Source: Candidatus Moraniibacteriota bacterium
GTDB taxonomy: Bacteria; Patescibacteriota; Minisyncoccia; Moranbacterales; UBA2206
Reading direction: 5' to 3'
DNA length: 64,000 nucleotides
Assembly (NCBI GenBank): GCA_049303795.1
Contig: JBAQNM010000006.1
Span: forward strand, 717 to 64,716
A program made the translations under genes and the position numbers. The notes beneath the pieces are model-generated. The model worked only from the letters and a program-made list of their open reading frames with translations. It was not told the DNA's origin and did no database searches. Below, one piece after another: positions 861-29,210 of the stretch (its first letter is position 1; every line of letters begins with the position of its first letter).

Positions 861-867
861 AAAAATA

Positions 868-1863: not shown

Positions 1864-1880
1864 TTATTCACTTTGTTCAC

Positions 1881-1969: not shown

Positions 1970-2008
1970 AAATTGTGAAACGTGATATTAACGTTTCACA
2001 ATAACATA

Positions 2009-3421: not shown

Positions 3422-3533
3422 AAATTTTAATTTTCCTTTTAATTATAACTTAATCTATATTCCCATAATACAATAAAATAAGCAATCCTTTCAAGGACTG
3501 CTCATTTTTATCTATTTTCAAATTTAAAAGGTA

Positions 3534-4157: not shown

Positions 4158-4892
4158 CTATTTTTTTGCGATTTTCCAAAGCAATTTAAAATAGCTCAGA
4201 TAAGCATCATGAATATCTTGACTGTCCATTTGAATAGCAAATATTTCCTTGCCGAAAGAAATTAATGTGACGCAATTATGCCAAATTTGAATTGAAATTG
4301 GAGTTGTGTGCTCTTGTCTCAAAAATCTGCATTCTCTATTTATTCTCTTAAGATTTATAGCTTCTTTTCTATATGCTTCACTAAATAATAATTTTGATTT
4401 TATATTTTTGTCTTGTCGCAGCTTATTGCTTTTCTCGAGAATTCCTCCAACTTCCAACATCTTAGTATGCTCCTCTGCTAAACAAGCCAAGATATATATT
4501 TCACTATTGGCTGGCATTTTTTCGTCATTTCGCAAAATAAGTTCGCGATAAGCCTGCGCCCCTTCATAAATTTTTATCTCCTGTCTGTTTGTCTGCCCTC
4601 CGAGTTTTTGATTAATTTCTTTTATAAGATTTTTAGCAATTTGTTCTTTAGTTTTTATATTATCAAAAATATTATCCGGATTAGAAATTTTATAATGATT
4701 GCGTCGTCCTTTTACCACGCCAATTACCATATTTTTTTCTATAAGACCCTTTAAGGCATCATAAATGACCTGACGATGTATTTTCAGTCTTTCAATTATC
4801 GGTCCAACTGTAACCTCCCCAACTTCAAGAAGGGTTTTATAAACTTTTATTTCATTATTAGTCAAACCAAGTTGTTTTAGTTCATTTTCCAT
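4158..4892 (-). CDS. TrmB-like winged-helix transcriptional regulator, paralog 1 of 9
   Basis: N-terminal LGLTNNEIKVYKTLLEVGEVTVGPIIERLKIHRQVIYDALKGL matches the TrmB-type wHTH. About 245 aa. C-terminus ends ...YFKLLWKIAKK, as in the other paralogs. Confidence 0.6.
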   Translation of the reverse strand: MENELKQLGLTNNEIKVYKTLLEVGEVTVGPIIERLKIHRQVIYDALKGLIEKNMVIGVVKGRRNHYKISNPDNIFDNIKTKEQIAKNLIKEINQKLGGQTNRQEIKIYEGAQAYRELILRNDEKMPANSEIYILACLAEEHTKMLEVGGILEKSNKLRQDKNIKSKLLFSEAYRKEAINLKRINRECRFLRQEHTTPISIQIWHNCVTLISFGKEIFAIQMDSQDIHDAYLSYFKLLWKIAKK

Positions 4893-9475: not shown

Positions 9476-10243
9476 ATGAAACTAGACAATATTTTGAATC
9501 TATTTAATATTAGAGAAACAGAGAAAGAAATTTTTAAGATTTGCTTTGAATCTGATGGGATTGGGGCTAGCGAAATTGCCAAAAAAATAGGAATTAACCG
9601 CACTTCGACTTATGATTTTTTGGATAATTTGGTTAAAGCCGGTCTAATCATTGAATCACAAAAACAAGGAGTAAAAAAATTTTACGTCCAAAAACCGGAA
9701 AAAATCGAAGAGCTAATTAAAGAAAAAGAAGGAAAAGTTTCAGTTGCTAAAAAATCGATAGAGGATCTTAAAAATAATTTTTACCAAAATAAAAAAAGAA
9801 TTGCCCCAAAAATGCAGTTCTACGAAGGAAAAGAAGAATTACGACAGATGATGAAAGATTTGCTATTATATCAAAACATAACAATCTATTCATTCTGGCC
9901 AATTGAGAATATTATTCAAGCTCTTGGAAAAGATTTTTACAGAGAATTTCATGTAAAAAGAGTCGCTAGTAACATTAAAATTAAAGTTATTTGGCCACAA
10001 AAACATACTAAGCAAAAAGAGAAGCACTCTTTTCTTGAAGGATCTGAAAATTTCAAAAGAGAAATCAGAATCTTACCTGAAGATATAGACTTTAATCTCG
10101 GCTACACTATTTATAGTAATAATGTTAGATTTATGTCCTCTCAAAAAGAAGGCTACGGATTTATAATTGAGAGCCAAGAAATGGCAGATACAATGAAAAA
10201 ACAATTTGAGATTATTTGGAAAATATCTAAACCCTTATCTTAA
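9476..10243 (+). CDS. TrmB-like winged-helix transcriptional regulator, paralog 2 of 9
   Basis: N-terminal wHTH (EKEIFKICFESDGIGASEIAKKIGINRTSTYDFLDNLVKAGLI). C-terminal GYTIYSNNVRFMSSQKEGYGFIIESQEMADTMKKQFEIIWKISKP is shared with the other paralogs. Confidence 0.6.
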   Translation: MKLDNILNLFNIRETEKEIFKICFESDGIGASEIAKKIGINRTSTYDFLDNLVKAGLIIESQKQGVKKFYVQKPEKIEELIKEKEGKVSVAKKSIEDLKNNFYQNKKRIAPKMQFYEGKEELRQMMKDLLLYQNITIYSFWPIENIIQALGKDFYREFHVKRVASNIKIKVIWPQKHTKQKEKHSFLEGSENFKREIRILPEDIDFNLGYTIYSNNVRFMSSQKEGYGFIIESQEMADTMKKQFEIIWKISKPLS

Positions 10244-14527: not shown

Positions 14528-17251
14528 ATGTCAGAAAAGCCTAAAAAACTTATTCTCATTGATGGCAATGCGATCATTCATCGCTCCTATCATGCACTTC
14601 CACCCTTCACCACCAAAAAGGGCGAGTTAGTAAATGCGGTCTATGGTTTCGCTTCAACTGTTATTTCTATCATTGCAAAATTTCAGCCGGAATATATTAT
14701 TGCCACTTTTGATTTGGCCGGACCGACTTTTCGCCATCTGGATTATGCGGAATATAAAGCAACGAGAGTAAAGGCAGACGAAGCGCTTTACGCCCAAATC
14801 CCCCGCGTCAAAGAAGTTGTGCGAGCTTTTGGTATTCCAATTTGCGAAGCGTCTGGTTTTGAAGCGGACGATGTGATTGGAACGCTAACTAAAAAAGCGG
14901 AAGAGAGCACTGAAAATTTGGAAATCATTATTGTCACTGGTGACATGGACACTTTGCAACTAGTTAGTGATAAAACAAAAGTCTACACAATGCGCCGGGG
15001 TCTGACTGACGCAGTGCTCTATGGCAAGCCGGAAATTTTTGACCGCTATTCTCTTTTGCCAGAGCAGTTGATTGATTATAAAGGTCTGCGTGGCGATCCA
15101 TCAGATAATATTCCAGGAGTGAAAGGAATTGGAGAGAAAACCGCCATTGAGCTTTTAAAAACTTACGGTACATTAGAAGGTGTTTATGAGCACTTGGGTG
15201 AAATTAAAAAAAACCTCCAAGAAAAACTGGAGCATGATCGTATGATGGCAATCAAAAGCAAAGAGCTGGCCACTATTTCCAAAGGAGCGCCGGTCGAACT
15301 GGAATTAGAAAAATCCGTTACGCGCGAATATGACAAACCAACCCTGCTCGCCCTTTTTGATGAATTAAATTTTCATAGTCTCAAAAAAAGATTAGGAGGA
15401 GTAGAAAAAAATGCCGGAGAGACTGCTACTGAAAATAAAACTAAAAAAGAAACTGGTGTGAAAGATTTTAAATTTGAACTCGTTTCAGAAAAAAATGCTG
15501 ATGAATTATTAAAAAACATTTCTGAGCAAAGTGAAATCGCCTTAAAATTAAAAATAGTTGGTGAAACCACTCTTAATGCCAAACTACTTGGCATCTCTGT
15601 GGGCTATAAAGCCGGTCGTGTCGCCTATTTTGACTGTGAAGACAAGGCGATTTTTTCAAAGATAAAAACAATCATAGAAAATCCGGAGATTGAAAAAATT
15701 GGATATGATCTAAAAAATGATTTCAAGGTTCTGTATAAAGCGGGTGTAAGTTTGGCCGGCGAGTATTTTGATATTCTCATCAGTAGCTATCTTCTCAATC
15801 CTGGCCGAAAAGTAAACTTGGGTGAGTTAGTTTCTGAATATCTGCACGAGGAAATGGAAATGGAAAATAAAAAAGGCCAACTCGGATTAGAAATCGAATC
15901 GCCAGAAGAAGTGCTGAGAAAAATTTGCAGCGTTTCTGATTATATTTTCAAACTAAAAAAAATTCACGAAGAAGAAATAAAAAAAATCAGCGAAGAACAA
16001 GTCAAAAACAATAATCAAGCAAAAAATATTTTAACCGAAGTTTTTTCCAAAATCGAAATGCCACTGATTGAAGTTTTGGGACAAATGGAGTTGTGGGGTA
16101 TTAAATTAAACACGCTAATTTTCAAAGGCATCTCCGAAACAATCACAGAACGTCTAGCGAAACTCGAACAGTCCATCTATAAATTAAGCGGGGAAACTTT
16201 CAATATTGCTTCGCCTAAACAACTCTCTGAGGTATTATTTGAAAAAATGAAAATTTCGACAGAGGGCTTAAAGAAGGGAAAAACAGGTGTCATTTCTACT
16301 GCCTCGGCAGAGTTGGAAAAATTAAAAGGCGAACATAAAATCGTGGAAAAAATTGAAGAATTCCGCGAAATTTCTAAATTGAAAAATACCTATCTCGATA
16401 CACTTCCTTTGATGGTTGATGAAAATTCTCACTTGCACACCACTTTCAATCAAGCTGTCACGGCCACCGGACGATTATCTTCTTCTGAGCCTAATTTACA
16501 AAATATTCCTATTCGCACCGAACTCGGTCAACTTCTGCGCGTTGCTTTTGTCGCTGAAGATGGTTGGAAATTAATCAGCGCCGATTATTCTCAGATAGAT
16601 TTGCGCGTTGTTGCTCATGTCAGTTCTGATAAAAAAATGATTGAACTTTTTCATGCCGGCGAAGATATTCATCGCGCCACCGCAGCGGAGATAAATAAGA
16701 TTCCCCTTTCCCAAGTTTCCGATAAAATCAGACGAACCGCCAAAGAACTGAATTTTGGCGTGATCTATGGTATGGGTACTTTTGGCTTTGCTTCTCGCAC
16801 CGGAATTTCCAGAGAAGATGCTAAAAAATTCATCGACGCTTATTTTGAAAAATTCCAAGGCGTCGCCACTTATATGCGCGAAATAAAAGAATTTGCTAAA
16901 ACCAATGGTTATGTGGAAACAGAAATTGGACGACGCAGATATCTCCCGGAAATTAACTCCCCTAATTTTCAAGTCCAAAGTGGAGCAGAAAGAATGGCGA
17001 TCAATATGCCGATTCAAGGACTCGCTTCAGATATTATGAAAATTGCGATGCTCAAAGTTCACGAAGAATACAAAAATAATCCGGACGTGAAAATGCTTTT
17101 GCAAATTCATGATGAAATTATTTTGGAAGTGAAAGAAAATGTTGCCAAGGAAATTTCAGAAAAAATAAAAACCATTCTGGAAAACGCCTACACGCTTCGT
17201 GTTCCACTAGTGGCGAATGTGGAAATTGGAGATAATTGGGGGGAGATTTAA
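14528..17251 (+). CDS. polA: DNA polymerase I (5'-3' exonuclease plus polymerase domains)
   Basis: 907 aa. N-terminal 5' nuclease motifs (LILIDGNAIIHRSYHA, GDPSDNIPGVKGIGEKTA). Pol A motifs RRxxKxxNFGxxYG (RRTAKELNFGVIYG) and QIHDEIILE. Confidence 0.95.
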   Translation: MSEKPKKLILIDGNAIIHRSYHALPPFTTKKGELVNAVYGFASTVISIIAKFQPEYIIATFDLAGPTFRHLDYAEYKATRVKADEALYAQIPRVKEVVRAFGIPICEASGFEADDVIGTLTKKAEESTENLEIIIVTGDMDTLQLVSDKTKVYTMRRGLTDAVLYGKPEIFDRYSLLPEQLIDYKGLRGDPSDNIPGVKGIGEKTAIELLKTYGTLEGVYEHLGEIKKNLQEKLEHDRMMAIKSKELATISKGAPVELELEKSVTREYDKPTLLALFDELNFHSLKKRLGGVEKNAGETATENKTKKETGVKDFKFELVSEKNADELLKNISEQSEIALKLKIVGETTLNAKLLGISVGYKAGRVAYFDCEDKAIFSKIKTIIENPEIEKIGYDLKNDFKVLYKAGVSLAGEYFDILISSYLLNPGRKVNLGELVSEYLHEEMEMENKKGQLGLEIESPEEVLRKICSVSDYIFKLKKIHEEEIKKISEEQVKNNNQAKNILTEVFSKIEMPLIEVLGQMELWGIKLNTLIFKGISETITERLAKLEQSIYKLSGETFNIASPKQLSEVLFEKMKISTEGLKKGKTGVISTASAELEKLKGEHKIVEKIEEFREISKLKNTYLDTLPLMVDENSHLHTTFNQAVTATGRLSSSEPNLQNIPIRTELGQLLRVAFVAEDGWKLISADYSQIDLRVVAHVSSDKKMIELFHAGEDIHRATAAEINKIPLSQVSDKIRRTAKELNFGVIYGMGTFGFASRTGISREDAKKFIDAYFEKFQGVATYMREIKEFAKTNGYVETEIGRRRYLPEINSPNFQVQSGAERMAINMPIQGLASDIMKIAMLKVHEEYKNNPDVKMLLQIHDEIILEVKENVAKEISEKIKTILENAYTLRVPLVANVEIGDNWGEI

Positions 17252-17342
17252 AAAATATTATTGACTTTTTTGAAAATAAAAACGCTCGCCGGACCTTGCC
17301 ATTGAGCGTTTAAGCTTGTATTAATCTTTTTTAAACCAGTTT

Positions 17343-17903
17343 TTACTTCAAAACAAATATCAGTTCAACTCCGGATACTTTCAAGACTCTGACATTTTTC
17401 CGTTCGTGCGCAGGCATTTCTACCGGCTGTCCATCTGCACATTGGGACACTTCTTTCTCAACGAATTGTCCTCCGCAGGTCTCACAGATATCCCCGGATT
17501 TTTTCCATTGATTGATCTCTGAGTGGGGGCAGGGTGCTACGCTGATTTCTGCCTTAATAGTGGGGCTTACTTTTTTAATAAAAACCCCCTTGCTGTTGGG
17601 CACCATCGGATTGCCACTGCTCTCATCAAGAAGTTGTGCGGAACCGGAAATTTCGATGCTATGGAAATCCAGGTAGTGCTTTATTGACCATGCGAGATCC
17701 TTATCTTGCCTGACAATACTTTTCTCCGCTTTTTCTTCAAGAGCGTTCAGGCTATTTTCAAACTCCTCAATTTTTGCTTCGAATGCCTCGAATTCATCAT
17801 TCGCAGTAATTTCACCTTCCACCTCAACGCTTTTTTTGAGAACCTTCAATTGATCTTTCATCCCGTTGATTTTTTTCCGCAGAACATCCGCTTCTTCTTT
17901 CAT
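17343..17903 (-). CDS. Hypothetical coiled-coil protein with a C-terminal Cys-rich zinc-ribbon-like segment (CPHS...CETCGG...C)
   Basis: N-terminal heptad-rich acidic/lysine region. C-terminal Cys cluster. The 3' half of the gene is visibly GC-richer than the 5' half. Confidence 0.4.
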   Translation of the reverse strand: MKEEADVLRKKINGMKDQLKVLKKSVEVEGEITANDEFEAFEAKIEEFENSLNALEEKAEKSIVRQDKDLAWSIKHYLDFHSIEISGSAQLLDESSGNPMVPNSKGVFIKKVSPTIKAEISVAPCPHSEINQWKKSGDICETCGGQFVEKEVSQCADGQPVEMPAHERKNVRVLKVSGVELIFVLK

Positions 17904-17931
17904 AACCCTCTCCCTTTTTAAAATTAATAGT

Positions 17932-18510
17932 TTAAATCGAAAATCTCAATCCATGTGCTTCCAAGACATCCCCCAGCTCAGCTAAACCTTTTCGGCCGAA
18001 GTTTTTCATTTTCAACAGTTCACTCTCGGTTTTTTTGGTCAAATCTGCAATTGTAATTATATTGCAATTTCTCAAGATATTTACAACTCTCACTGACAAT
18101 TCATAATTGTCTTCAATCACAACCAGCTGTGAATTATCAAAAGATTCAGATTCCAACTCCCTTGATTTTATCGCAATATTTTCCAATTTTTTCAGCCTAA
18201 GAGGGTTTCTTAATCGCCGGACTGATCCCGCTATATGCACCCTAACAGCTGAAGGCGTTACGCTGTATATCATGGCTATTTCTCTTAAATTATGAGCTTT
18301 ACAATCCAAGCCAAATCTCAATTCTACGACCTCCCTTCGCGAAATCTTATTTGTCCTCTTTTTATTGTTATCGCCAACAAACCCCAGGGAATCAAGAATT
18401 CTTTTAACAATATCCTTATCGCTTTCACTAAGCGCTTTGATATTTTCTCTTGGAATTCCTGTGATTTCTGCCAAAAAAAATGCATATCCTCCTAAAAGCA
18501 TTTTTTTCAT
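17932..18510 (-). CDS. DNA-binding protein with a sigma-70 region-4-like HTH fused to an RNA polymerase alpha-subunit C-terminal-domain-like HhH module
   Basis: RREVVELRFGL...REIAMIYSVTPSAVRVHIAGSVRRLR resembles sigma region 4.2. LSVRVVNILRNCNIITIADLTKKTESELLKMKNFGRKGLAELGDVLEAHGL closely resembles the RpoA alpha-CTD (LTVRSANCLK...ELLKTPNLGKKSL.EIKDVL). Confidence 0.5.
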   Translation of the reverse strand: MKKMLLGGYAFFLAEITGIPRENIKALSESDKDIVKRILDSLGFVGDNNKKRTNKISRREVVELRFGLDCKAHNLREIAMIYSVTPSAVRVHIAGSVRRLRNPLRLKKLENIAIKSRELESESFDNSQLVVIEDNYELSVRVVNILRNCNIITIADLTKKTESELLKMKNFGRKGLAELGDVLEAHGLRFSI

Positions 18511-18619
18511 AATAATCCTCTTTTTATGGTTAAGCTACGGGTTTCTTGCCTATATAAATTGTCAATGAACGGACCCTTAATGTAAGCAAATATCCTTAAG
18601 TTTGTCAATTTTTTAAAGG

Positions 18620-19363
18620 CTATCTATGATTCACATACTGCTTCGACCTTTTCCAGATTATTTCAAACATTGCCGTTAAGGCATTCTTTACTTTAATATT
18701 TTCAATGACAATACACAGACTGTCTTCCGGAATCATAACAACAGTTTTATTTGAAAATAGATAAAGCATAATTTTAAAATCATCAAACATGGCGCTAGTT
18801 CGAATTTGAATTTTGTGATTTTGAATAACAAACTCATCTTTTTCACTGGAAGGAATAATGGTACGGGATTTTATTCCTAGCTTTTTCTTCTCTGTCAATA
18901 AGTCTTTCCAAAAATCATAGCCTAACTTGAAAGCAGAACGAATATCCCCTTCTATTGTTAATAGCTCGTCTTTTTCTGGATTTAAAACGATAATCTCTTT
19001 TAATGTTTCTTTCAGACCCGTGTTTGTATCATAAAATCTTATTTTATTTCCAGCCGATTTTTGCTCAAATGCATTTTCCAATTGAGGCATTAGAGCATCC
19101 AAAAGATAATACTGATCCTTGATTCGTGAGAGCAGTATCTTTGGATTTTTTATATAATACCTCTTTCTTTTTTTGATTATCTCCATGGCAATCAAATCTT
19201 TCTCTGCCATTTGATCAATCACTAAATATAGGGATGTTCTTTTGATTCCTGTATTTTTTGATATTTCCTGAAGAAATTGCGGTCCTTTTTGAAGAAGGGA
19301 AAGATAAATTTTTCCTTGACTGTCAGGCAAGCCAATTTTTTCTAGTTGTTCTTTTGTTATCAT
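18620..19363 (-). CDS. TrmB-like winged-helix transcriptional regulator, paralog 3 of 9
   Basis: N-terminal wHTH (GKIYLSLLQKGPQFLQEISKNTGIKRTSLYLVIDQMAEKDLI). C-terminus ...LTAMFEIIWKRSK. Confidence 0.6.
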   Translation of the reverse strand: MITKEQLEKIGLPDSQGKIYLSLLQKGPQFLQEISKNTGIKRTSLYLVIDQMAEKDLIAMEIIKKRKRYYIKNPKILLSRIKDQYYLLDALMPQLENAFEQKSAGNKIRFYDTNTGLKETLKEIIVLNPEKDELLTIEGDIRSAFKLGYDFWKDLLTEKKKLGIKSRTIIPSSEKDEFVIQNHKIQIRTSAMFDDFKIMLYLFSNKTVVMIPEDSLCIVIENIKVKNALTAMFEIIWKRSKQYVNHR

Positions 19364-19541
19364 AATAATGACGTCAATAATGACGATAAATTTATAATAT
19401 TATTCAATATAACCTTTAAATATAGTATGATATATTATTTAGTTTGTCAAATAAATTGACTAAATATAGAAATAACATACAATCAGACTATCTTTCAATT
19501 GGAAAGATGCACATTAACAATTTATAAAAAGGGAGAATACT

Positions 19542-20660
19542 ATGAAAATAGGAGACTTAGAAAGATTTCAGGCAACAAAAAGATTACCCAAAAGACTTAT
19601 TGAGGATATTCCTGATTTAGTAGCGGCAGTTATTAATCGGGAGTGCAATTTAAGTTGCAAACACTGTGGTTGGGCACCAAAAAATAGTGTTTGCGAAAAA
19701 TATCTCAATAGGGATGGCTGGGATAAGTTCATTGAAAGCTTTTGTCTAGTTGGGAATAAAAAAGAAGAAAAAACAATCGTGATTTCTGGGCGAGAGCCAT
19801 TATATGATCTGGATTCAAGAAAAAAACTCATATCTATTCTATTGAGCTCTCGAAAGCAAGGGATTTATTCCGGATTTATCACAAATGGAATTAATCTGCC
19901 TTTTTTGTTCGAAGAGTATCCTTATTTTATTCCGGATTTTATGGATATCAGCCTTGAGGGGCCAAAAGAAATTAATGATAAAATTCGAGGAGCAGGATCT
20001 TTTGAAAAAACTTTGGCTGGTCTAAAGATAGCTCTTAAAAAAGTGGAAAAATTGTTTATTTCCACCACTGTAACAGCTATTAACATTCAGACTATTCCGA
20101 ATTTTGTTCAGTATTTGGCTCGGTTGGGAGCTAAGCGGTTAGTTTTTCATTCTCTAATACCAGGAGAATTTGTTGCGCCAGGAATTCAGACTGAAGATGA
20201 CGACTTTCTTGAAATGATAAAGAAAATAAATCAATTAGCGATTAAGCTAGAATTAGAACAAGTCATTTTTGATTTATATCCACCGTCTTTTAAAAATTTC
20301 CCCATGGTAATTGAGAAAATAAAGCCGGAAAATCTATTTATTGATAATTATATCGTGATGCCACTAGCTTCAAATGTATTTATCCGATTTGTTAATCTCA
20401 TGGAGTCATACGCTATTTCTTTTCTGGTTTCTCCGGAAGGCTATACTATTACCCCGCTGGAAATGAGAATGATAAATTATCTCAAGAACAAGGAAAATTG
20501 CCATCATGTTCAAAATATTTTGGCTTGGGATGGAAACCCTTATGCTAATGAAATAGTAAAATTGGCAAAAAACATTCCTGATATTTGTTTTGAGCAAAAA
20601 TGTTTCAAATTTTGTCTGGGGCAAAACTCATTTTGCCCATTATCTAAAAACAAAAAATAA
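19542..20660 (+). CDS. Radical SAM enzyme with a C-terminal Cys-rich auxiliary-cluster (SPASM/twitch-like) region. Candidate peptide-modifying maturase.
   Basis: CNLSCKHC (CX3CX2C) at residues about 36-43. GGE-like ISGREPL. C-terminal Cys cluster NCHH...DIC-FEQKC-FKFC-LGQNSFC. Confidence 0.7.
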   Translation: MKIGDLERFQATKRLPKRLIEDIPDLVAAVINRECNLSCKHCGWAPKNSVCEKYLNRDGWDKFIESFCLVGNKKEEKTIVISGREPLYDLDSRKKLISILLSSRKQGIYSGFITNGINLPFLFEEYPYFIPDFMDISLEGPKEINDKIRGAGSFEKTLAGLKIALKKVEKLFISTTVTAINIQTIPNFVQYLARLGAKRLVFHSLIPGEFVAPGIQTEDDDFLEMIKKINQLAIKLELEQVIFDLYPPSFKNFPMVIEKIKPENLFIDNYIVMPLASNVFIRFVNLMESYAISFLVSPEGYTITPLEMRMINYLKNKENCHHVQNILAWDGNPYANEIVKLAKNIPDICFEQKCFKFCLGQNSFCPLSKNKK

Positions 20661-20674
20661 AGGAGGATTGTAAC

Positions 20675-20791
20675 ATGGAAAAAAATAGTACTAAAAAAAT
20701 TGAAGCTGGATCAATGGCTGGCAGTAAAGGTGGAGTCAAGAAACCGCAACAGCCGGAACCGAAGGAGAATGAAGAAAAACGCAAAGAATAA
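20675..20791 (+). CDS. Small ORF (38 aa, MEKNSTKKIEAGSMAGSKGGVKKPQQPEPKENEEKRKE) immediately downstream of the radical SAM gene. Candidate substrate peptide or small protein.
   Basis: Strong RBS AAAGGAGGA 5 nt upstream of the ATG. Followed about 30 nt downstream by a rho-independent terminator. Too short for the supplied ORF track. Confidence 0.4.
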   Translation: MEKNSTKKIEAGSMAGSKGGVKKPQQPEPKENEEKRKE

Positions 20792-20820
20792 AAAATAAAC
20801 CCTAAATATAAACAACCAGA

Positions 20821-20855
20821 AAAGGCTGCGAGTGAAACACTCAAAGCCTTTTTAA
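20821..20855 (+). terminator. Rho-independent terminator (AAAGGCT-GC-GAGTG-AAA-CACTC-A-AAGCCTTTTT), copy 1 of a repeated 3' module
   Basis: Nested stem-loop followed by a T-run. Near-identical copy at 22117..22150. Confidence 0.65.
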
Positions 20856-20942
20856 ATTTGTGTTATCGCCAATATTTCCTAAATCCGAGCTTTAGGATAT
20901 AAAATTATTTATTATTTATATATCGCTTCGACCTTTTCCAGA

Positions 20943-21692
20943 TTATTTTGTTAAGCTCCAAATCAAATCAAATTTGCTTTTCTCGCTTTTAGCTATTTCT
21001 TCACTTTCGATTTTAACGGCAATTAGCTCTTTTTTGGAGGTGAAAATTGCTACTGTATTTTGATATATTAAAACAAAAGATGGGTGATAAAAATCTGCTG
21101 GTAGAAATTTTATTTCTCGTAAATCGCTAGCATTTTTTTCACTCGAAAAAAAATCTTTAGGAAAAAATTCTGCCACTTCTTTCTCAAAATATAAAGCTTT
21201 TATCTTGGAATTATTTTTTATTCTTTCGGGAATATAGTATTTTTGATCATATTCTTGCCCAACTATTTCATAAATTTTTTTGAGAGATCCAATAGCTCGG
21301 ATAGTTTCGTTCATTTTTAATGATTCATTGGCAATTGAAATGTAACCTTCTTTTCCCTCATACATAGTCACTCTCGGCTTGTAATAAGAGTTTTTTTGAA
21401 TAGCATTAAGTTCAGGGATTATTTCATTGACCTCGCTCAATCTTTTTTTTAATTGATCAGAAAGCAAAGTTGGTGACGAAGCAACAAAACGCAAACCATT
21501 GGGTAATTTAAAATTTCCCATCAAACCTTTTTCTTCAAGATTTTTTGCAATCAAATATGCTGAACTTCTTTTAATCCCAGCTATTTTAGCGATTCTGGCT
21601 AGAGGTGCTTCGCCTAATTTCAAACCAGCCAGATATAGTCGTGTTTCTTCATTGCTTAGTCCATAATTTTTCAAAACTTGTTCAATATTCAT
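20943..21692 (-). CDS. TrmB-like winged-helix transcriptional regulator, paralog 4 of 9
   Basis: N-terminal wHTH (ETRLYLAGLKLGEAPLARIAKIAGIKRSSAYLIAKNLEEKGLM). C-terminus ...SKFDLIWSLTK. Confidence 0.6.
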   Translation of the reverse strand: MNIEQVLKNYGLSNEETRLYLAGLKLGEAPLARIAKIAGIKRSSAYLIAKNLEEKGLMGNFKLPNGLRFVASSPTLLSDQLKKRLSEVNEIIPELNAIQKNSYYKPRVTMYEGKEGYISIANESLKMNETIRAIGSLKKIYEIVGQEYDQKYYIPERIKNNSKIKALYFEKEVAEFFPKDFFSSEKNASDLREIKFLPADFYHPSFVLIYQNTVAIFTSKKELIAVKIESEEIAKSEKSKFDLIWSLTK

Positions 21693-21897
21693 ATTGTTGT
21701 TATTTATGACAACAGTATATCATGCTTATATTTAATAGTCAATAGTGGCTTAATTTAAGCAATAATATTACTTTAAATTTAATAAAAATAGTCATATTTC
21801 AGGACATAACTTTGACTAATAGCTACATTTCTGCTAGTATTAACAGTTAATAAAAAAGGATAGTTATTTAAAAATTTAATTGAAAAGGAGAAATAAG

Positions 21898-22098
21898 GTG
21901 AATGGAGACCTACTATTAATAAAACTACTAGCTTCTTTTGGAGTATCCATTATTATGGGAGTTATAATGACACTATTGGATCAAATGTTTGCGGTAAAAA
22001 GCGATATATTATATAAGGTAGCCCTCATGGGGTGCGGAGCGTGTTTATATAAAATTTTTTCCTTTATTTTTCTGTCAGAGGATAAAGATGAGAAGTAG
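21898..22098 (+). CDS. Small hydrophobic Cys-containing ORF (66 aa from GTG, ...KVALMGCGACLYKIFSFIFLSEDKDEK). Candidate precursor peptide or small membrane protein.
   Basis: RBS AAAAGGAG 6 nt upstream of the GTG (the ORF track starts earlier at TTG 21880). Its C-terminal acidic/lysine tail and 3' UTR/terminator are shared with the 38-aa ORF at 20675. Confidence 0.4.
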   Translation: MNGDLLLIKLLASFGVSIIMGVIMTLLDQMFAVKSDILYKVALMGCGACLYKIFSFIFLSEDKDEK

Positions 22099-22116
22099 AA
22101 AATAACATAAACACAA

Positions 22117-22150
22117 AAAAGGCTGAGAGTGAAACACTCAAGGCCTTTTT
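22117..22150 (+). terminator. Rho-independent terminator, copy 2 of the repeated 3' module (AAAAGGCTGAGAGTGAAACACTCAAGGCCTTTTT)
   Basis: Differs from the copy at 20821 by 2-3 substitutions. Flanks are also similar. Confidence 0.65.
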
Positions 22151-22448
22151 AAATTTGTGCGTATCATTGGGCTTAATCCACTTTGCATTTTGTTTTTATA
22201 TATGATTTGCGATTAGAGGTTATCGCATCGCTTCAAAGCCAAAAAGGCTTTCAATCGAAAAACAAGAAAGCAAGAAAAAGCGAGAAGTAAATTTTGATAA
22301 TAAAAAAACGGGCGATTCGCAATGAAATCGCCCGGGTCGTTTAAGTTATAAATTTTTTTAGAAAAATTAACCATATAAATGGATGATTGACCAGCTTTTC
22401 AATCAATTCAATTTTGTACAGACCTTCAAGTTAATCCGCCAGTAATTA

Positions 22449-22697
22449 TTAGATTTCTTTGAACTTTTTAGATTTGCTTTTCACTTTTTTTCTCCTATAT
22501 TTCAAAATGGTGTCTTTTTTATTCTGAAAAATATCCAGAGAGAACGCTATGAAAATAGCTATTAGCATTGTTGAATAAAAAGCTGAGAAAAAACGTATAT
22601 AGGGGTCTTCTGATAAAAAACTAATTGACCCCAAGGTAATTACGCAAACCATGATTATCTCTATACGAATTTTTATTGATTTACTGATTTTTTTCAT
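22449..22697 (-). CDS. Hypothetical small membrane protein (82 aa)
   Basis: Two hydrophobic helices with a lysine-rich tail. Terminator hairpin on the minus strand at about 22300-22340. Confidence 0.35.
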   Translation of the reverse strand: MKKISKSIKIRIEIIMVCVITLGSISFLSEDPYIRFFSAFYSTMLIAIFIAFSLDIFQNKKDTILKYRRKKVKSKSKKFKEI

Positions 22698-22699
22698 TT

Positions 22700-23359
22700 T
22701 TATCTCCTTGGCTTTTCCTCAATAGTTGCCATCAGGTCATCAATTATTTGATTTCCTGATTTTTCCAATAATTCCAACACTCCTTTTGCACCGTAATCCA
22801 ATAATGTTAGCTTGCCTTTATGATAGGAAAAATTTTCGGGGTTAGAAAAAGTGTGTCCGACTGCACCTATTTCTTCTCGGTATTCTTTTTTTGCAACTAT
22901 TTCCCAAAGTTTTCCAAAAGTAAATCTTTTTTTGACATTTCCTCTTTGATAATCGAATTTTATTTTGCCAGCGCCTTCTTCAAAGCGGTAGAAATTTATA
23001 AATCCGAGCGAAAAATACAACTTTGTCAGTAAAGGATGTTTTGTTTTGTGCCAGCATACGGCCTCTCTGTAGTTTTCCATTAAACCTAACGTCAACCATT
23101 CCCATATTATTTCGAGGCTTGAAATAATAGTTGATCTTTTTTCTCCTTTTAAAATATCCTTACAAAGACGACGGAGTTCTTGATATAAAAACAAAAGTCT
23201 TATCCTGGGTATTTTCATGACTATATTTCTTTTTGTCACTTTATTACTAAAATTACCATATTTTTCTTTTCGTATCTCTTTCACAGTTTTACTTTCAAGG
23301 ATAATTATTAGTCGGGTTGTACCTTCACTGCTAAACGTTATTTTCAGTTCATTTATCAT
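22700..23359 (-). CDS. Hypothetical protein (219 aa), divergent from TrmB-like paralog 5
   Basis: ORF only; no recognisable domain. Confidence 0.35.
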   Translation of the reverse strand: MINELKITFSSEGTTRLIIILESKTVKEIRKEKYGNFSNKVTKRNIVMKIPRIRLLFLYQELRRLCKDILKGEKRSTIISSLEIIWEWLTLGLMENYREAVCWHKTKHPLLTKLYFSLGFINFYRFEEGAGKIKFDYQRGNVKKRFTFGKLWEIVAKKEYREEIGAVGHTFSNPENFSYHKGKLTLLDYGAKGVLELLEKSGNQIIDDLMATIEEKPRR

Positions 23360-23426
23360 TTTTTATCTCCTATTTCTAAATAGATTGTTCGTTATGTTTT
23401 TAAATAACTTTGCCAAACGCCAATCG

Positions 23427-23455
23427 TTGACAATCAAGGGAATATACTATAATAT
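23427..23455 (+). promoter_or_regulatory. Putative sigma-70 promoter for paralog 5 (TTGACA - 17 nt - TAATAT), followed by palindrome CGTCA-tcc-GACG at 23477..23488
   Basis: Consensus -35 and an AT-rich -10. An inverted repeat lies between the promoter and the ATG at 23503. Confidence 0.45.
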
Positions 23456-23502
23456 CCAATGTATGTAAATATGTTGTCGTCATCCGACGAACAAGCAAAA
23501 AT

Positions 23503-24288
23503 ATGGATATAATAAAAATCTTAGAAAAAATCAATTGCACGGATTTTGAAGCCAGAACTTTCCTGGCGCTCTTGGAGGAATCAAAAGGCGCGAGCGTTTT
23601 GGGTTTGAGTAAAAAGTTAAATCTGCCTCGTCCTACAATTTATGGTCATATAGAATCTTTGATTGAAAAAGGGTTGGCAAAAAAAGGCGTGGGAGAAACC
23701 GGGGCAGTTTTTTATGCTGAAGATAAGGAAAATATTCTAAGCATTTATAATGAAAAAATTGAAGAAATGAAAAAGGCCCGGGAAAATTTTTCTGAGGCAT
23801 TTAAAAATAAAGATTATGGAGCCACTTATCAGCCAAAATTAATCCACTATTCCACTAAAGATGCTGCCAAATCAATTTTGCGCGATATTTTGAGATCAAG
23901 AGAAAAGGAAACTTATTGGTTCTGGCCTCTCAAAGAAATGCTGAAAGTAATTCCGGAAGAGGTTCTGCAAAATTTTAATGAAGAAAGGGTAAGAAGAAAA
24001 ATTTGGACAAATATACTTTGGCCACCAAAAAGAAAAATTGATATAAAAAAATATCCCTTGCTTGGGCCTTGGAACGAGAAAGAATCTTTGCGCAGGATAA
24101 AAATTTTACCGGAAAATATCGATCAGACTTTAGGTTATGCGATTTATGGCGACAAAGTAGCCTTCATTTCTTCCGATAGGGAAAATTACGGCATGATTAT
24201 TGACAGCCGAGAACTTGCCCAAACTCTGAAAGCTCAATTTGATTATTTTTGGAAAATATCAAGACTTATAAAACAAGAATCAGTCTAA
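23503..24288 (+). CDS. TrmB-like winged-helix transcriptional regulator, paralog 5 of 9
   Basis: N-terminal wHTH (FEARTFLALLEESKGASVLGLSKKLNLPRPTIYGHIESLIEKGL). C-terminal GYAIYGDKVAFISSDRENYGMIIDSRELAQTLKAQFDYFWKISR. Confidence 0.6.
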   Translation: MDIIKILEKINCTDFEARTFLALLEESKGASVLGLSKKLNLPRPTIYGHIESLIEKGLAKKGVGETGAVFYAEDKENILSIYNEKIEEMKKARENFSEAFKNKDYGATYQPKLIHYSTKDAAKSILRDILRSREKETYWFWPLKEMLKVIPEEVLQNFNEERVRRKIWTNILWPPKRKIDIKKYPLLGPWNEKESLRRIKILPENIDQTLGYAIYGDKVAFISSDRENYGMIIDSRELAQTLKAQFDYFWKISRLIKQESV

Positions 24289-24519
24289 CTTATTAAATCA
24301 AATTCTAGATCAATTTATACTATCATACTATTATTAGACTTAATTCATTTCAAACAAGCCTGGAATTAAAAAATTTAACCGAAGAGGAAATGAGTCTTTC
24401 TGTCGAAGAGTTTAGAAAAATCTTTTAATACCAATACTTTTTTACAAAATAAAAACGCACCCAAGGATTTTTTCCTGAGTGCGAATTTTTTTCGAATATT
24501 TTTTTTGGGAGCAGCGTTG

Positions 24520-25050
24520 CTATTTAAACAAGCTCTCGATTTCTGTCAGCGGTTCGAAAATATTTCGCTGGCCTCTGTTGAGCGAAAGATGGACGATTAT
24601 ACATACAAGAAATCTGTCTTTCGCGGAGTCATTTTTGGTGACAAGAAACTCTGAAACATACGTGGTCGTACCCTTGTCAGCCTCTTTTGAAACAACTGAA
24701 TAATCAGAGAAGACGAAATAGATCTCGCCTTTACCGCTTACCCATATTTTTTTTGGAGCCTCCTTGATGCCAGTACCCCTGAATTCATAGAACCAATCAT
24801 CTTTAAGAATCAAATTTCTTCCTTTCGGCGACTGCATGGGAACGTAGACCAAGAATCCAGCAAATTCCCATTCTGCATCCAGGAAAAATTGACCTTTGGG
24901 AGCTCGCATGACGACGTAGTAATCGCAGGTCGTATCAGGTCCTACAAATTTTGCGGCCAGGATATACTGATGAGTTTCCTCACAAAAAGCCGGGGTCACT
25001 ACCAACAAAACGATTGCCAATACTGCCATAACTAAAGTCGTTTTTTTCAT
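24520..25050 (-). CDS. Hypothetical secreted protein (signal peptide MKKTTLVMAVLAIVLLVVTPAFC)
   Basis: N-terminal signal-peptide-like segment. Bidirectional terminator hairpin at about 24456-24495. Confidence 0.45.
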   Translation of the reverse strand: MKKTTLVMAVLAIVLLVVTPAFCEETHQYILAAKFVGPDTTCDYYVVMRAPKGQFFLDAEWEFAGFLVYVPMQSPKGRNLILKDDWFYEFRGTGIKEAPKKIWVSGKGEIYFVFSDYSVVSKEADKGTTTYVSEFLVTKNDSAKDRFLVCIIVHLSLNRGQRNIFEPLTEIESLFK

Positions 25051-25340
25051 GAATCTTTCTCCCTGTTTTAGTTTTTAAAATAATAAAGTTAATTTTCATT
25101 TACCCCTTAAATCAAGGATTATTCCCGAAAATAAGGGGTAAATGGAAAAAGGAGAGATAAATTCGGTTGTCAATGAACGACGTGTAAATATAGAGTATTT
25201 AAAAGATTTTGTCAAACAAAAAATTTGGATCAAAACTGACATAAACATCTAACTATGCTAGAATTTTATCACTAATAAAGGACGGGCTATGTGATCATTC
25301 GCAATAATATCCCAAAAAATAATCCCCCTAAAATAATATT

Positions 25341-26195
25341 ATGCCGGAACTACCCGAAGTTGAAACAATCATTTCTGATTTGAATAAAAAAATTAAAGGT
25401 GCCGTAATCACTGATTTTTGGTCTGATTTTTCCAAAGCTATTAAAGGCTCCACGCTAGAAAAATTTAAACGTGAAATGCGCGGAAAAAAAATTCTCAAAG
25501 CAGAAAGAGTTGGTAAAAACATCCTTATCAATCTTTCTGACAATAAAACTTTACATATTCATTTGCGCATGACTGGACATCTCCTAGTTAAAGATAAATC
25601 AAAAAAACTTAACCAAAAAAACTTTGCTGATAAAGTCAATCAATATATTCATCATATTTGGAAATTAGATAAAGATAAAACTTTGGAATTTTCTGATTTG
25701 CGTAAATTCGCCACTATCACATTATTTGACACTAATGAAATTTCAAATTATCTCGCAGACAAAAAAATTGGCATTGATGCTTTGGATAAAAAATTTACAT
25801 TCGTAATATTTAATCAACTCTTGAACGCAAAACCTAAAATGCCAATCGGGATTTTTCTTCTTGATCAAAGCATTATTTCTGGTATTGGCAATATCTATCG
25901 CAGTGAAATTCTTTTTGCTTCCGGGGTTTTGCCAGAACGAAAAAATGAAAGCTTAAATAAAATTGAACGTAAAAAAATCTTCGTAAACACTGAGAAAATA
26001 TTAAAACTGGCCATAAAAATGCGAGGAACGTCTGACAGTGACTATCGTGATTCTTCTGGAGCGCCGGGACATTTTCAAAAAATGCTTAAAGTTTATCGCA
26101 AAGACAAAACGCCTTGCTCAAAATGTGGAAATATTCTTCTACGCAAAAAAATGGCGCAACGCAGTGTTTTTTATTGCGCAAATTGTCAGAAATAA
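25341..26195 (+). CDS. fpg: Formamidopyrimidine-DNA glycosylase (Fpg/Nei family)
   Basis: MPELPEVETI N-terminus with catalytic Pro2/Glu. H2TH region. C-terminal zinc finger CSKCGN...CANCQ. Confidence 0.85.
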   Translation: MPELPEVETIISDLNKKIKGAVITDFWSDFSKAIKGSTLEKFKREMRGKKILKAERVGKNILINLSDNKTLHIHLRMTGHLLVKDKSKKLNQKNFADKVNQYIHHIWKLDKDKTLEFSDLRKFATITLFDTNEISNYLADKKIGIDALDKKFTFVIFNQLLNAKPKMPIGIFLLDQSIISGIGNIYRSEILFASGVLPERKNESLNKIERKKIFVNTEKILKLAIKMRGTSDSDYRDSSGAPGHFQKMLKVYRKDKTPCSKCGNILLRKKMAQRSVFYCANCQK

Positions 26196-28463: not shown

Positions 28464-29210
28464 TCAGATTAAATTTTTAGAATATACTTTTGCTCCACTC
28501 CATGATAACTCATAAACTTGACGCATAGCATCTGCAATAACTCTACTTTCAATAATTATTGACATATTTTCCGTATAATTCATAAAAGCGACTTTGTTTT
28601 TGTATATATTTACTTCAATTTGAGGATTGAAAATTTCTTCAGAAACAATAATTGTTTCTGATAACTCTTTTTTATCTAAGAATTTATGCTTTGTATCCCA
28701 CAAAGATCCTTGTCCAGCAATACGACGCGCCTTAATGTTTAAGTTAGTACGTTTTTCAATGTAATTATAATCCCTAGGAAAACGTTCAAAAAAAGCATTA
28801 GTATTCCATTCTAAAATTTCTCCTGGCTTTTCCCTGAGGGTATCTTCGTAAATATTGTGAATCGCATTTTCTCCTTCAAAAAAAAGAATCTTAGGTTTAG
28901 TTTCATTTTTATTATAGATCGCTTCTAGCTGAGGTAGGTTTTTTTTAATTTCAGCTTGAACTTCTCCAGCTATGCTTAAAAGTTTCTCCGGAGGTTCAGC
29001 TACAAATTTAGTTTTATTTTTTATTATAGTTTTTCCTACAACTCCACGATTTACAAGGTAACCCAAAACAGAATAGGCAGTGGTTCGTTTTAGATTAGCT
29101 TTTTTAGCAATGTCTTGCGCAGAGGATGTGCCTAATTCTAAAGAAGCCAAATAAATTTTTGCTTCATTATGGGAAAAACCAAATTTTTCTAAAATGTGTT
29201 CTATTTTCAT
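28464..29210 (-). CDS. TrmB-like winged-helix transcriptional regulator, paralog 6 of 9
   Basis: N-terminal wHTH (EAKIYLASLELGTSSAQDIAKKANLKRTTAYSVLGYLVNRGVV). C-terminus ...MRQVYELSWSGAK. Confidence 0.6.
   Translation of the reverse strand: MKIEHILEKFGFSHNEAKIYLASLELGTSSAQDIAKKANLKRTTAYSVLGYLVNRGVVGKTIIKNKTKFVAEPPEKLLSIAGEVQAEIKKNLPQLEAIYNKNETKPKILFFEGENAIHNIYEDTLREKPGEILEWNTNAFFERFPRDYNYIEKRTNLNIKARRIAGQGSLWDTKHKFLDKKELSETIIVSEEIFNPQIEVNIYKNKVAFMNYTENMSIIIESRVIADAMRQVYELSWSGAKVYSKNLI

Follow-up and report, generated by a model that had tools for sequence, protein, structure and literature searches.

The locus and its control region

Within the 64-kb window, by which the whole stretch of DNA analysed is meant, a radical SAM enzyme of 372 aa is encoded at 19542-20660 on the forward strand. 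A TrmB-like gene (18620-19363, reverse strand) diverges from it, such that the two promoters lie back to back, and a 38-aa open reading frame (ORF; 20675-20791, forward strand) begins 14 nt past the enzyme's stop codon. This ORF encodes a candidate precursor or substrate peptide, MEKNSTKKIEAGSMAGSKGGVKKPQQPEPKENEEKRKE, with homologs in 11 lineages. The strong ribosome-binding site and terminator that had been ascribed to it are both present, as the Shine-Dalgarno sequence AAAGGAGG (20659-20666, forward strand) and an intrinsic-terminator-like hairpin with A-tract, stem and U-tract (20817-20862, forward strand; MFE -18.2 kcal/mol, z -3.9) that ends the enzyme-peptide operon. Judged by sequence, the two genes of this operon are translationally close-coupled. 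Further downstream lie a second TrmB-like paralog (20943-21692, reverse strand; PF01978, E 4.5e-9) and a hydrophobic 66-aa ORF containing MGCGAC (21898-22098, forward strand), read from a GTG behind AAAGGAG, with the TTG at 21880 as its start in the ORF listing. A second copy of the hairpin, 46 nt long and 93% identical, follows the hydrophobic ORF (22114-22159; -19.1 kcal/mol, z -4.6), and the window has two occurrences of the 42-nt hairpin pattern, where shuffles give an expectation of zero. Each feature described in the earlier note, including the MGCGAC ORF and the duplicated terminator, is found where it was placed.

The divergent gene encodes a TrmB-family protein of 247 aa with an N-terminal wHTH domain (PF01978, E 1.3e-9; 38.2 bits against a cut-off of 25.6). 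By phmmer, it scores 316-443 bits against the upstream, divergently transcribed neighbour of the enzyme gene in L092, L008, L006, L009, L010, L097 and L098, and at most 75 bits against the eight other TrmB paralogs of the window. Of the two regulators described as interleaved with the cassette, the upstream one can be called cassette-specific by orthology, but the second, supposedly embedded, is conserved between loci neither in position nor in orthology. The upstream protein is presumed to regulate the divergent enzyme-peptide operon. Its full-length identity is 59% to the L010 copy and 64% to the L097 copy; the L097 enzyme is 29% identical to that of the window, making the TrmB protein the more conserved of the two, which a simple pathway-regulator role leaves unexplained.

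A promoter scan of the divergent control region (19364-19541) gives the promoter-like sites TTGACT-16-TACAAT (19456-19483, forward strand) and TTGACA-17-TACTAT (19450-19422, reverse strand), the back-to-back -35 boxes of which make the palindrome GTCAAATAAATTGAC (19446-19460). A direct repeat of AATGACG (19367-19373 and 19379-19385) adjoins the TrmB start. The GTCAA-N5-TTGAC palindrome is exact in the window, L092, L091 and L097, and has one mismatch (GTCAA-N5-TAGAC) in L006, L008 and L009. The ATGACG tandem repeat is also present in L006, L008, L009 and L092, with an imperfect version in L097, whose second copy reads TTGACG; the control region of L010 has neither element. We infer that the repeat and the palindrome would act as an operator.

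Neighbours other than the cassette genes vary from locus to locus, and no protease, transporter or immunity gene is common to the loci compared. The M48 peptidase near the cassette in L009 and the ABC genes near it in L091 and L094 are lineage-specific. By comparison of the loci, the TrmB-type regulator, the radical SAM enzyme and the tiny Lys-rich peptide make up a conserved but rare three-gene unit.

The radical SAM enzyme

The enzyme has a short N-terminal helical extension, followed by the radical SAM core and, at the C-terminus, a degenerate SPASM-like domain. The search against PF04055 that had been proposed for this ORF gives a match (E 1.3e-10; 42 bits against a cut-off of 29.5 bits), and membership of the superfamily is backed as well by fold matches. 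The [4Fe-4S] binding motif, C35-x3-C39-x2-C42 (CNLSCKHC; codons at 19644-19667, forward strand), is nearly invariant in an alignment of 27 family sequences, and both the GREP (GGE-like) motif and TNG are invariant there. The AF2 model has a pLDDT of 96.5; it shows only about 30 residues ahead of the cluster motif and no RRE, and there is no PqqD or RRE match from Pfam.

A profile search of the PDB with the enzyme family ranks CteB and anSME first, CteB and SkfB count among the nearest structures, and the five best structural neighbours all have peptides or proteins as substrates. Profile and fold place the enzyme in the SPASM/twitch branch, with its closest solved structures being peptide- or protein-acting. 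Its top NCBIfam matches are to the N-terminal halves of SPASM maturases and NirJ/Ahb enzymes, all far under cut-off, and the SPASM-family matches span only residues from about 20 to 235. A viperin structure aligns over 237 residues, but the pVip HMM scores 31 bits, in the core only, which does not make the enzyme a prokaryotic viperin. The C-terminal extension of viperin is nucleotide-binding and has no Cys cluster, whereas the enzyme described here has an additional Cys-rich SPASM-like domain.

Cysteines are found in the C-terminus at residues 320, 349, 354, 358 and 365, a five-Cys cluster which had been taken to suggest an auxiliary domain of SPASM or twitch type. The relation holds by profile and by fold, but only four of the five residues are conserved: C349-x4-C354-x3-C358-x6-C365 (codons at 20586-20636, forward strand) is kept among relatives, across A1 and A2, and C320 is not. 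The SPASM models fail to match the sequence directly, whether from NCBIfam or PF13186 (no match at E<=0.1 for the window enzyme, and matches to only 3 of 27 family members), and the seven-Cys SPASM motif for two auxiliary [4Fe-4S] clusters, CX9-15GX4C...CX2CX5CX3C...C, is lacking. The family profile aligns residues 296-370 with the anSME SPASM domain, 263-335 (domain i-E 2e-4), with the equivalences C349=C317, C358=C326 and G360=G328. Alignment by hhalign with a PF13186-bearing protein gives a probability of 99.5% over 292 columns, in the same register. The homologous SPASM C-terminal fold of beta-hairpin, helix and Cys-rich loops is present, and the fear that the Cys cluster would resemble no auxiliary-cluster domain is not borne out. 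P305 and N362 sit where anSME has C276 and C330, such that two Aux I ligand positions are lost; the assignment of the anSME cysteines to their clusters is reportedly given by Goldman et al. 2013. The four-Cys site is presumed to hold a single auxiliary Fe-S cluster, at the Aux II ligand position of anSME. A Twitch domain of the BtrN/MoaA type, a truncated SPASM with the N-terminal half and one cluster at the Aux I position, does not fit the enzyme.

The partner peptide

The 38-aa peptide carries the core motif S-M-A-G-S-K-G-G (20711-20734, forward strand), which is the proposed modification site. Across the family the repeat is M-A-S-x-A-G-S-K-G-G-[IV], in one to four copies per peptide, with a looser form of [M]-[A/G/P]-S-x-x-G-S-x-G-G and an invariant core of S-x-x-G-S-x-G-G. 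The only invariant side chains are those of two Ser spaced four residues apart. Ile or Val follows GG directly in 16 of the 17 core-clade repeats; in distant clades it becomes Pro or Cys, and Lys becomes His or Ala. The peptides are 22-94 aa long, very basic, probably disordered and essentially free of aromatic residues, and have at most one Cys each (0-1), at no conserved position. A leader is often missing, and the motif begins at the initiator Met or at residue 1-3 in L010, L091, L094, L097 and L100.

Five of the peptides have no Pfam match at E<=10, including to PF10685 (KGG repeat; GsiB/YciG), and the peptides have no NCBIfam match even at E=10. A peptide search of a protein database also gives no matches; with that search empty, orphan copies of the peptide apart from the enzyme may exist.

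The motif peptide lies at -14 to +24 nt from the enzyme stop in 11 of the 11 lineages with downstream DNA (the window, L092, L006, L008, L009, L010, L091, L094, L096, L097 and L100), over enzyme identities of 25-74%. A regular expression for the motif, run in six frames, has one match in the window and matches every family locus that continues beyond the enzyme gene, in each case shortly after it and on the same strand. The same search of 81 control radical SAM loci (671 kb) gives two chance matches, of which the one inspected, in L078, is an out-of-frame artefact. The first suggestion, of a radical SAM gene coupled to a gene for a short peptide as is typical of RiPP maturases, is borne out: the peptide adjoins the enzyme and co-varies with it. 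A distant enzyme clade (P0017, L099) has no motif peptide, and its enzyme gene overlaps a gene for an ABC substrate-binding protein. Therefore, the enzyme fold is not everywhere tied to the motif peptide.

A proposed peptide-maturation system

The earlier note had considered the Lys/Gly/Ser-rich ORF an unlikely substrate and preferred the CGAC peptide. The co-occurrence in all 11 lineages suggests the reverse, and the 38-aa peptide is likely to be the substrate of the enzyme. The cassette can be read, with fair confidence, as a motif-directed radical SAM peptide-maturation system comparable to anSME. In this system, the TrmB protein, divergent from overlapping -35 boxes, would regulate the two-gene operon. 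Given the missing RRE and the many leaderless peptides, the enzyme would most likely read the short motif directly, as anSME reads its sulfatase motif. The CX3CX2C cluster would cleave SAM reductively, the 5'-deoxyadenosyl radical would take a hydrogen atom within the motif, and the lone C-terminal four-Cys cluster would handle the electron.

Since the two Ser are the only invariant side chains of the motif, our best guess is abstraction at an invariant Ser, most likely of the C-beta or C-alpha hydrogen. This would yield either a formylglycine-type aldehyde, by oxidation, or an intramolecular Ser-linked cross-link; next in order come attack on the C-alpha hydrogen of a glycine and epimerisation. 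Ser oxidation by anSME/AtsB proceeds via abstraction of a C-beta hydrogen (PMC10114670). The loss of two Aux I ligand positions weakens a strict analogy to anSME, in which Aux I is thought to be the electron acceptor for oxidation. No protease or exporter is conserved with the cassette. What it makes is probably a small modified protein that is used within the cell or released non-specifically, rather than a classical secreted bacteriocin.

Alternative explanations

It is highly improbable that the small ORF is no real gene and that the conserved sequence reflects an antisense ORF, a 3' UTR element or a chance ORF. The opposite strand is open across the motif region at every locus, where it reads ...PPLLPA..., and wobble analysis cannot separate the frames, as antisense and sense third codon positions coincide. 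However, the first Ser of the motif is encoded by TCN in 12 and AGY in 5 of the 17 repeat units, and Ser is kept through such switches by the sense frame only, which argues for selection on the peptide reading frame. SD-like GGAG or GGAGG sequences and start codons are equally placed in most loci, a few nt apart in most of 12 peptide genes; the SD is weak in L097, and that of L094 suits an ATG 9 nt downstream of the listed GTG. The antisense ORFs extend into the enzyme coding region, Rfam has no family match, the 38-aa ORF is annotated as a gene in L002-L004, and peptide ORFs are called in several assemblies. Hardly any weight is given either to a thioether synthase of the sactipeptide or ranthipeptide type that acts on the MGCGAC ORF, even though this ORF exists with AAAGGAG before its GTG and the operon's terminator sequence duplicated behind it, and CteB and SkfB are near the enzyme in structure. 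The ORF has no homologs by tblastn in related loci or among 5.8 billion protein clusters, which also undoes its choice as a substrate; the source assembly does not annotate it as a gene, and an opposite-strand gene and a terminator separate it from the enzyme gene. Of the two small ORFs for which conservation was to be checked, the Lys-rich one is kept with the enzyme and the MGCGAC one is not, and by these comparisons the latter is outside the cassette. The Aux I cluster of CteB is where the substrate Cys binds, and the enzyme here is missing two Aux I ligand positions. The sactipeptide/ranthipeptide type was rejected because the real partner peptide has no conserved Cys to serve as donor.

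A non-peptide substrate for the enzyme is unlikely. The candidates would be a tetrapyrrole (as for NirJ, AhbC or AhbD), a nucleotide (viperin) or a sugar (BtrN, DesII), with the small ORF as an unrelated or accessory protein that shares only the transcript, such as a hydrophilin, a KGG-like stress protein or a nucleic-acid binder. Matches to such enzymes are limited to the generic N-terminal core and far under cut-off (48 bits against 650), and the best structural neighbours point to peptides and proteins instead. The peptide stays with the enzyme down to 25% enzyme identity while other neighbours change, it matches neither PF10685 nor another family, and no haem, nucleotide or sugar pathway gene is seen next to the cassette at any locus. 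It is quite unlikely, too, that the peptide serves as a sacrificial precursor to a small molecule or cofactor by the logic of PQQ and mycofactocin, in which motif residues are cross-linked or oxidised and housekeeping peptidases free one product per repeat. The PQQ and mycofactocin pathways require several peptidase or tailoring enzymes, but no peptidase or further tailoring enzyme is conserved with the cassette, and Ser and Gly provide little redox-cofactor chemistry. Motif-directed maturation of the peptide is the preferred reading.

Comparison with known systems

Pfam and NCBIfam have no model for either the peptide or the enzyme family, and no paper was found on them. The cassette looks like a peptide-modification system without prior description, and the enzymes probably form a new radical-SAM peptide-maturation family.

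Among the closest known systems, anSME/AtsB (PDB 4K36-4K39) has a full SPASM domain of 7-8 Cys with two auxiliary clusters, in contrast to the four Cys of this family, and is 17-18% identical in sequence. It targets (C/S)-x-(P/A)-x-R in a large sulfatase, whereas the cassette has S-x-x-G-S-x-G-G as its motif, in a Lys-rich peptide of 22-94 aa from the adjoining gene. Membership of the anSME family (TIGR03942) was rejected at 38 bits against a cut-off of 349, with a mismatched motif and no sulfatase gene near the cassette.

The radical SAM-SPASM/twitch RiPP maturases SuiB (streptide), CteB (SCIFF/thermocellin), SkfB and ChlB use an N-terminal RRE, which is wanting here, and leader peptides, which many of the motif peptides do not have. 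Their cores require Cys, Trp or Lys partners, in place of which the motif peptides have no conserved Cys and essentially no aromatics, and the enzyme is about 60-70 residues shorter. The epipeptide system YydF/YydG (EpeE; PDB 8AI1) likewise combines a radical SAM enzyme, with SPASM/twitch-like auxiliary Fe-S, and a small cationic peptide. In that system the targeted residues are Ile and Val, the ones that follow GG in nearly all of the core-clade repeats. An epimerase of this type was rejected, as the conserved H-donor Cys outside the clusters is not found.

Haft's 'rSAM-associated Gly-rich repeat' system (GRRM) of cyanobacteria (TIGR04260/TIGR04261) is said to place a radical SAM/SPASM enzyme beside a Gly-rich repeat protein. 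Of the 53 NCBIfam matches to the enzyme described here, all far under cut-off, the best 25 do not include the GRRM enzyme model. Host group, peptide length and motif differ between the two systems, but GRRM and the cassette described here share a concept.

Organization of the locus

The window, with a G+C content of ~33%, matches contig JBAQEY010000068 of the metagenome-assembled genome GCA_049286985.1. The radical SAM enzyme is encoded by a 372-aa ORF (19542-20660, + strand; PF04055), divergent from a TrmB-like ORF (18620-19363, - strand; PF01978) and followed by a 38-aa ORF (20675-20791, + strand) that starts 14 nt past the enzyme stop, behind AAAGGAGG. These three genes are referred to here as the cassette. 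Further along are a second TrmB-like ORF (20943-21692, - strand; PF01978) and, from the ORF listing, a hydrophobic ORF of 66-72 aa on the + strand, which starts at TTG 21880 or GTG 21898 and ends at 22098. The 38-aa ORF is followed by a terminator-like hairpin of 46 nt with an A-tract and a U-tract, possibly bidirectional (20817-20862; z -3.9 versus shuffles). A second copy, 93% identical, is found 1.3 kb from the first (22114-22159; z -4.6 versus shuffles). The hairpin pattern occurs only in these two copies in the window, with none expected by chance. An earlier note had described a radical SAM gene with two small ORFs, interleaved TrmB-like regulators and a repeated terminator; given that the ORFs at their places, the Pfam matches, the Cys residues and both hairpin copies were all verified, that observation is confirmed, and its view that the locus merited closer study was right.

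The two hairpin copies flank the second TrmB paralog and the orphan hydrophobic ORF, and they differ at three positions, two in the internal loop and one just upstream of the stem. No Rfam family was matched across 17000-25500. Beyond the upstream TrmB gene, an odd small fusion of 192 aa (17932-18510, - strand) joins sigma-70 region 4 (PF04545) to an RNA polymerase alpha C-terminal domain (PF03118), and is not kept beside the cassette in other loci. It is followed by a 186-aa protein without a family match (17343-17903, - strand), predicted as a gene in every near-identical contig, which has a coiled-coil N-terminal half and a zinc-ribbon-like Cys pair, CPHS...CETCGG, at its C-terminus.

Coupling of the enzyme to a motif peptide

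The enzyme and a small peptide with the motif S-x-x-G-S-x-G-G are tightly coupled, independently of lineage. DNA downstream of the enzyme gene is available for 11 lineages (the window and the related loci L092, L005-7, L008, L009, L010, L091, L094/95, L096, L097 and L100), over which enzyme identity ranges from 25 to 74%. In all 11, a motif-bearing small ORF starts between -14 and +24 nt from the enzyme stop, and in most it is preceded by an SD-like sequence. A six-frame regex scan for the motif gives exactly one match in the 64-kb window, and finds it in each family locus that reaches past the enzyme gene, always on the same strand and just downstream. The same scan of 81 unrelated radical SAM loci (671 kb) gives only two matches; the one of these that was examined, in control locus L078, is an out-of-frame artefact within nirS.

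The exception is a more distant enzyme clade (P0017, L099) without a motif peptide. The L099 family member (616-3422) has 28% identity and retains the four-Cys motif. Its stop codon overlaps the beginning of a gene for an SBP_bac_5 ABC substrate-binding protein, with permease genes next in line; the substrate of this clade may be another one, possibly imported. L092 (860-2866), the closest of the distinct lineages at 74% identity, has a frameshift that breaks its radical SAM gene into ORFs of 204 aa and 150 aa. Its motif peptide ORF is unbroken and is directly followed by an IS200-type Y1 transposase; the copy may be in decay or may have moved recently.

Members of the enzyme family are very rare: a search of 5.8 billion protein clusters gave only seven close relatives (41-74% identity), and one of 1.84 billion gave 30 representatives at E<1e-30. 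Three contigs of the JGI metagenome collection matched a DNA pattern for the C-terminal CF.FCLGQ...CP motif of the enzyme. Among the matches listed for a genome-collection scan with the enzyme alignment, there were only generic radical SAM genes, with at most 36% identity over the N-terminal core. The cassette has so far been found only in rare uncultivated low-GC bacteria, which from their low GC and gene content may be CPR/Patescibacteria-like.

The peptides and evidence for their translation

The peptides range in length from 22 to 94 aa, are leaderless in five lineages and have a pI of 9-10.8. The window peptide reads MEKNSTKKIEAGSMAGSKGGVKKPQQ... and that of L010 reads MASVAGSKGGVKKPPKKPKKEK. 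The peptide of L008 has four repeats (for example DMASVSGSKGGIKKPPTKK) and that of L009 has three, and L006 has two neighboring genes with two repeats apiece. There are two tandem genes in L097 (MGSGKGSAGGCAESKK...), and the L100 peptide reads MASMSGSHGGPELD...MASMSGSHGGPDLP.... The core S-x-x-G-S-x-G-G is invariant over all loci, and its two Ser residues are the only invariant side chains. His or Ala takes the place of the motif Lys in the most distant clades, and Pro or Cys that of the Ile or Val after the motif. Only one of 12 peptides has an aromatic residue, a single one, and Cys is not conserved.

The antisense strand is also open across the motif, and wobble analysis cannot separate the two frames because their third codon positions are the same. 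The Ser codons are more telling. The first motif Ser has a TCN codon in 12 repeat units and an AGY codon in five, and the second has AGY 16 times and TCT once; this favors the sense frame, given that the amino acid survives such switches only in that frame. The small ORF is called as a gene in several independent assemblies. The codon-family switches, the kept position of the SD-like sequence and start, and these gene calls together argue that the peptide is a real gene product. Querying a database with the four-repeat peptide of 94 aa gave no match at E<=0.01, which is probably due to the short query and its biased composition.

In L006 (7538-7723) and L009 (2305-2490), the peptide genes are followed by an acidic, aromatic-rich ORF of 61 aa (MSNPFTIMDE.HQRYWQNYDYSSRAS...NPYILPVSESESE) that is 80% identical between the two. 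Neither the window nor the other loci have it, and it matches nothing in Pfam or NCBIfam.

The upstream TrmB-like gene and the putative control region

In 10 of 10 lineages with upstream DNA, a TrmB-like gene lies divergently upstream of the enzyme. The TrmB at 18620-19363 has a clear ortholog in seven related loci (316-443 bits), compared with at most 75 bits against the eight other TrmB paralogs of the window; by these comparisons, it is part of the cassette. It is much better conserved than the enzyme in L097 (110-844; 64% identity, versus 29% for the enzyme) and in L010 (4365-5150; 59%, versus 43-44%), a comparison that cannot be calibrated for organismal distance because the contigs share no housekeeping gene. 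A role as a simple pathway-specific regulator does not explain conservation that exceeds that of the enzyme.

The divergent region contains a palindrome, GTCAA-N5-TTGAC (19446-19460), made of back-to-back -35 boxes, and a tandem AATGACG repeat (19367-19385) beside the TrmB start. An exact palindrome is shared by the window, L092, L091 and L097, and L006, L008 and L009 have it with one mismatch. The window, L006, L008, L009 and L092 carry the ATGACG repeat, as does L097, where the second copy is imperfect; L010 has neither element. Both elements are presumably regulatory.

The window has nine TrmB-like paralogs of ~245-260 aa, at 4158-4892(-), 9476-10243(+), 18620-19363(-), 20943-21692(-), 23503-24288(+), 28464-29210(-), 46715-47473(+), 48303-49046(+) and 60382-61110(+). 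They are mutually distant (22-85 bits) and represent an unusually dense expansion of one regulator family.

Genes outside the cassette

The earlier note had favored the hydrophobic ORF (21880/21898-22098, + strand), with its MGCGAC sequence, as the substrate, and had counted the second TrmB as part of the system. Neither proposal held. The hydrophobic ORF has no tblastn match in the related loci and no relative in the database of 5.8 billion proteins. It is not called in the source assembly, has an SD-like sequence and probably encodes two transmembrane segments; it may be an orphan gene or no gene. The second TrmB (20943-21692) scores only 36 bits against the TrmB that follows the L008 peptide gene, so that the two are not orthologs, and other loci have different genes at that position: PIN and amidase genes, M48 peptidase and LemA genes, a ValRS gene, ABC transporter genes or an IS200-type transposase. 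The loci compared have no protease, exporter or immunity gene in common. The lack of export and protease genes in the cassette suggests a modified small protein that stays inside the cell, or one that is released non-specifically.

Architecture of the enzyme

The CX3CX2C motif of the enzyme comprises C35, C39 and C42, and its last 55 residues include five Cys (320, 349, 354, 358 and 365). A first AlphaFold model, from eight sequences, was poor, with pLDDT <50 for residues 285-372; a model from a 68-sequence alignment has a pLDDT of 96.5 and a pTM of 0.93. The closest solved relatives of the fold are peptide modifiers. In the model, ~30 residues form two short helices ahead of the cluster motif, and with only these residues preceding the motif there is no room for a PqqD-like leader recognition domain (RRE).

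The Cys-rich C-terminus had been suggested to be a SPASM- or twitch-type domain. Its homology to SPASM stands, both by profile and by hhalign; Pfam SPASM does not detect it, and the site conserved in family alignments is one of four Cys, C349-x4-C354-x3-C358-x6-C365. The family profile aligns residues 296-370 of the enzyme to residues 263-335 of the anaerobic sulfatase-maturating enzyme (anSME), and hhalign against a PF13186-bearing protein gives the same register with 99.5% probability. C349, C358 and G360 pair with C317, C326 and G328 of anSME, C354 is two positions past the equivalent of C320, and P305 and N362 stand in place of C276 and C330. In the anSME structure, C317, C320 and C326 reportedly ligate the auxiliary cluster Aux II, and C276 and C330 reportedly ligate Aux I. 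From the alignment and this ligand assignment, the C-terminus seems to be a remnant of SPASM in which two Aux I ligand positions are gone and one four-Cys site, from the distal half, is kept. This site would presumably be occupied by a cluster, for a predicted total of two [4Fe-4S] clusters in the enzyme. A classical twitch domain keeps the opposite half of SPASM (PMC10114670).

Proposed chemistry

The enzyme probably reads the eight-residue motif directly, as anSME reads the sulfatase motif, and would then abstract a hydrogen atom within it, with the flanking Gly residues giving access to the backbone. If the peptide is the substrate, the top-ranked outcome is abstraction at Ser C-beta or C-alpha to give a formylglycine-type aldehyde or a cross-link through Ser, with a probability not far short of even. 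Two features speak against a literal anSME mechanism: Aux I ligands have been lost, and the motif is not the same. Chemistry at Gly C-alpha is unlikely, and epimerization, for which the family alignments offer no conserved non-cluster Cys as hydrogen donor, is quite improbable; other outcomes make up the remainder.

Taken together, the enzyme, the Ser/Gly chemistry, the leaderless substrate and the TrmB partner could represent a new class of ribosomal peptide modification, a tentative proposal that is rather more doubtful than not. Under that proposal, the enzyme would be a leader- and RRE-independent radical SAM protein whose SPASM remnant has the distal four-Cys site only, and its substrates would be Lys-rich, multi-core, leaderless peptides. 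The repeated S-x-x-G-S-x-G-G would carry an undescribed modification on Ser and/or Gly. The candidates are an aldehyde derived from Ser and a cross-link, by an ether or C-C bond, that joins the two Ser or runs to a Gly C-alpha. Given its unusual conservation, the TrmB-like protein may do more than regulate, and could bind the peptide in place of the absent RRE.

Radical SAM-SPASM enzymes beside short peptides have repeatedly been a source of new chemistry and of natural-product classes. To our knowledge, nearly all characterized cores depend on Cys, on aromatic residues or on set side-chain pairs (for example Lys, Arg, Thr and Gln). With an invariant core of only Ser and Gly, no leader and two Aux I positions lost, the characterized cross-link chemistries cannot be used as they stand, which leaves anSME-like Ser oxidation on a peptide or something new. 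Given that the system is small, with one enzyme and one peptide of 22-94 aa, it is directly testable. It would open a first functional view of peptide modification in an uncultivated, TrmB-rich bacterial group about which little is known, and it offers a case for the role of a lone distal SPASM cluster.

Comparison with known systems

Several other readings of the cassette were rejected. The peptides could be taken for KGG/GsiB-like stress repeats, and yet they have no Pfam or NCBIfam match even at E=10. A defense system is hinted at by a weak, generic match to the pVip core, the only one found, and no defense model fits; as for a phage or mobile origin, no phage relatives of the enzyme were found. 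In NCBIfam (June 2026 release), no model reaches its cut-off for the enzyme, with a best score of about 49 bits versus 650, and no NCBIfam or Pfam model matches the peptides. In the literature, the GSKGG motif was not found in a RiPP context, nor were radical SAM RiPPs of such a kind found described from CPR bacteria, and the assembly prefix JBAQEY turned up in no paper.

By the membership tests for each, the cassette belongs to none of the canonical SPASM, twitch, sactipeptide/ranthipeptide, anSME or epipeptide systems. The enzyme is nearest to anSME in being motif-directed. In its likely mode of action, the cassette resembles a radical SAM-SPASM peptide maturase, and its chemistry stands a reasonable chance of being new.
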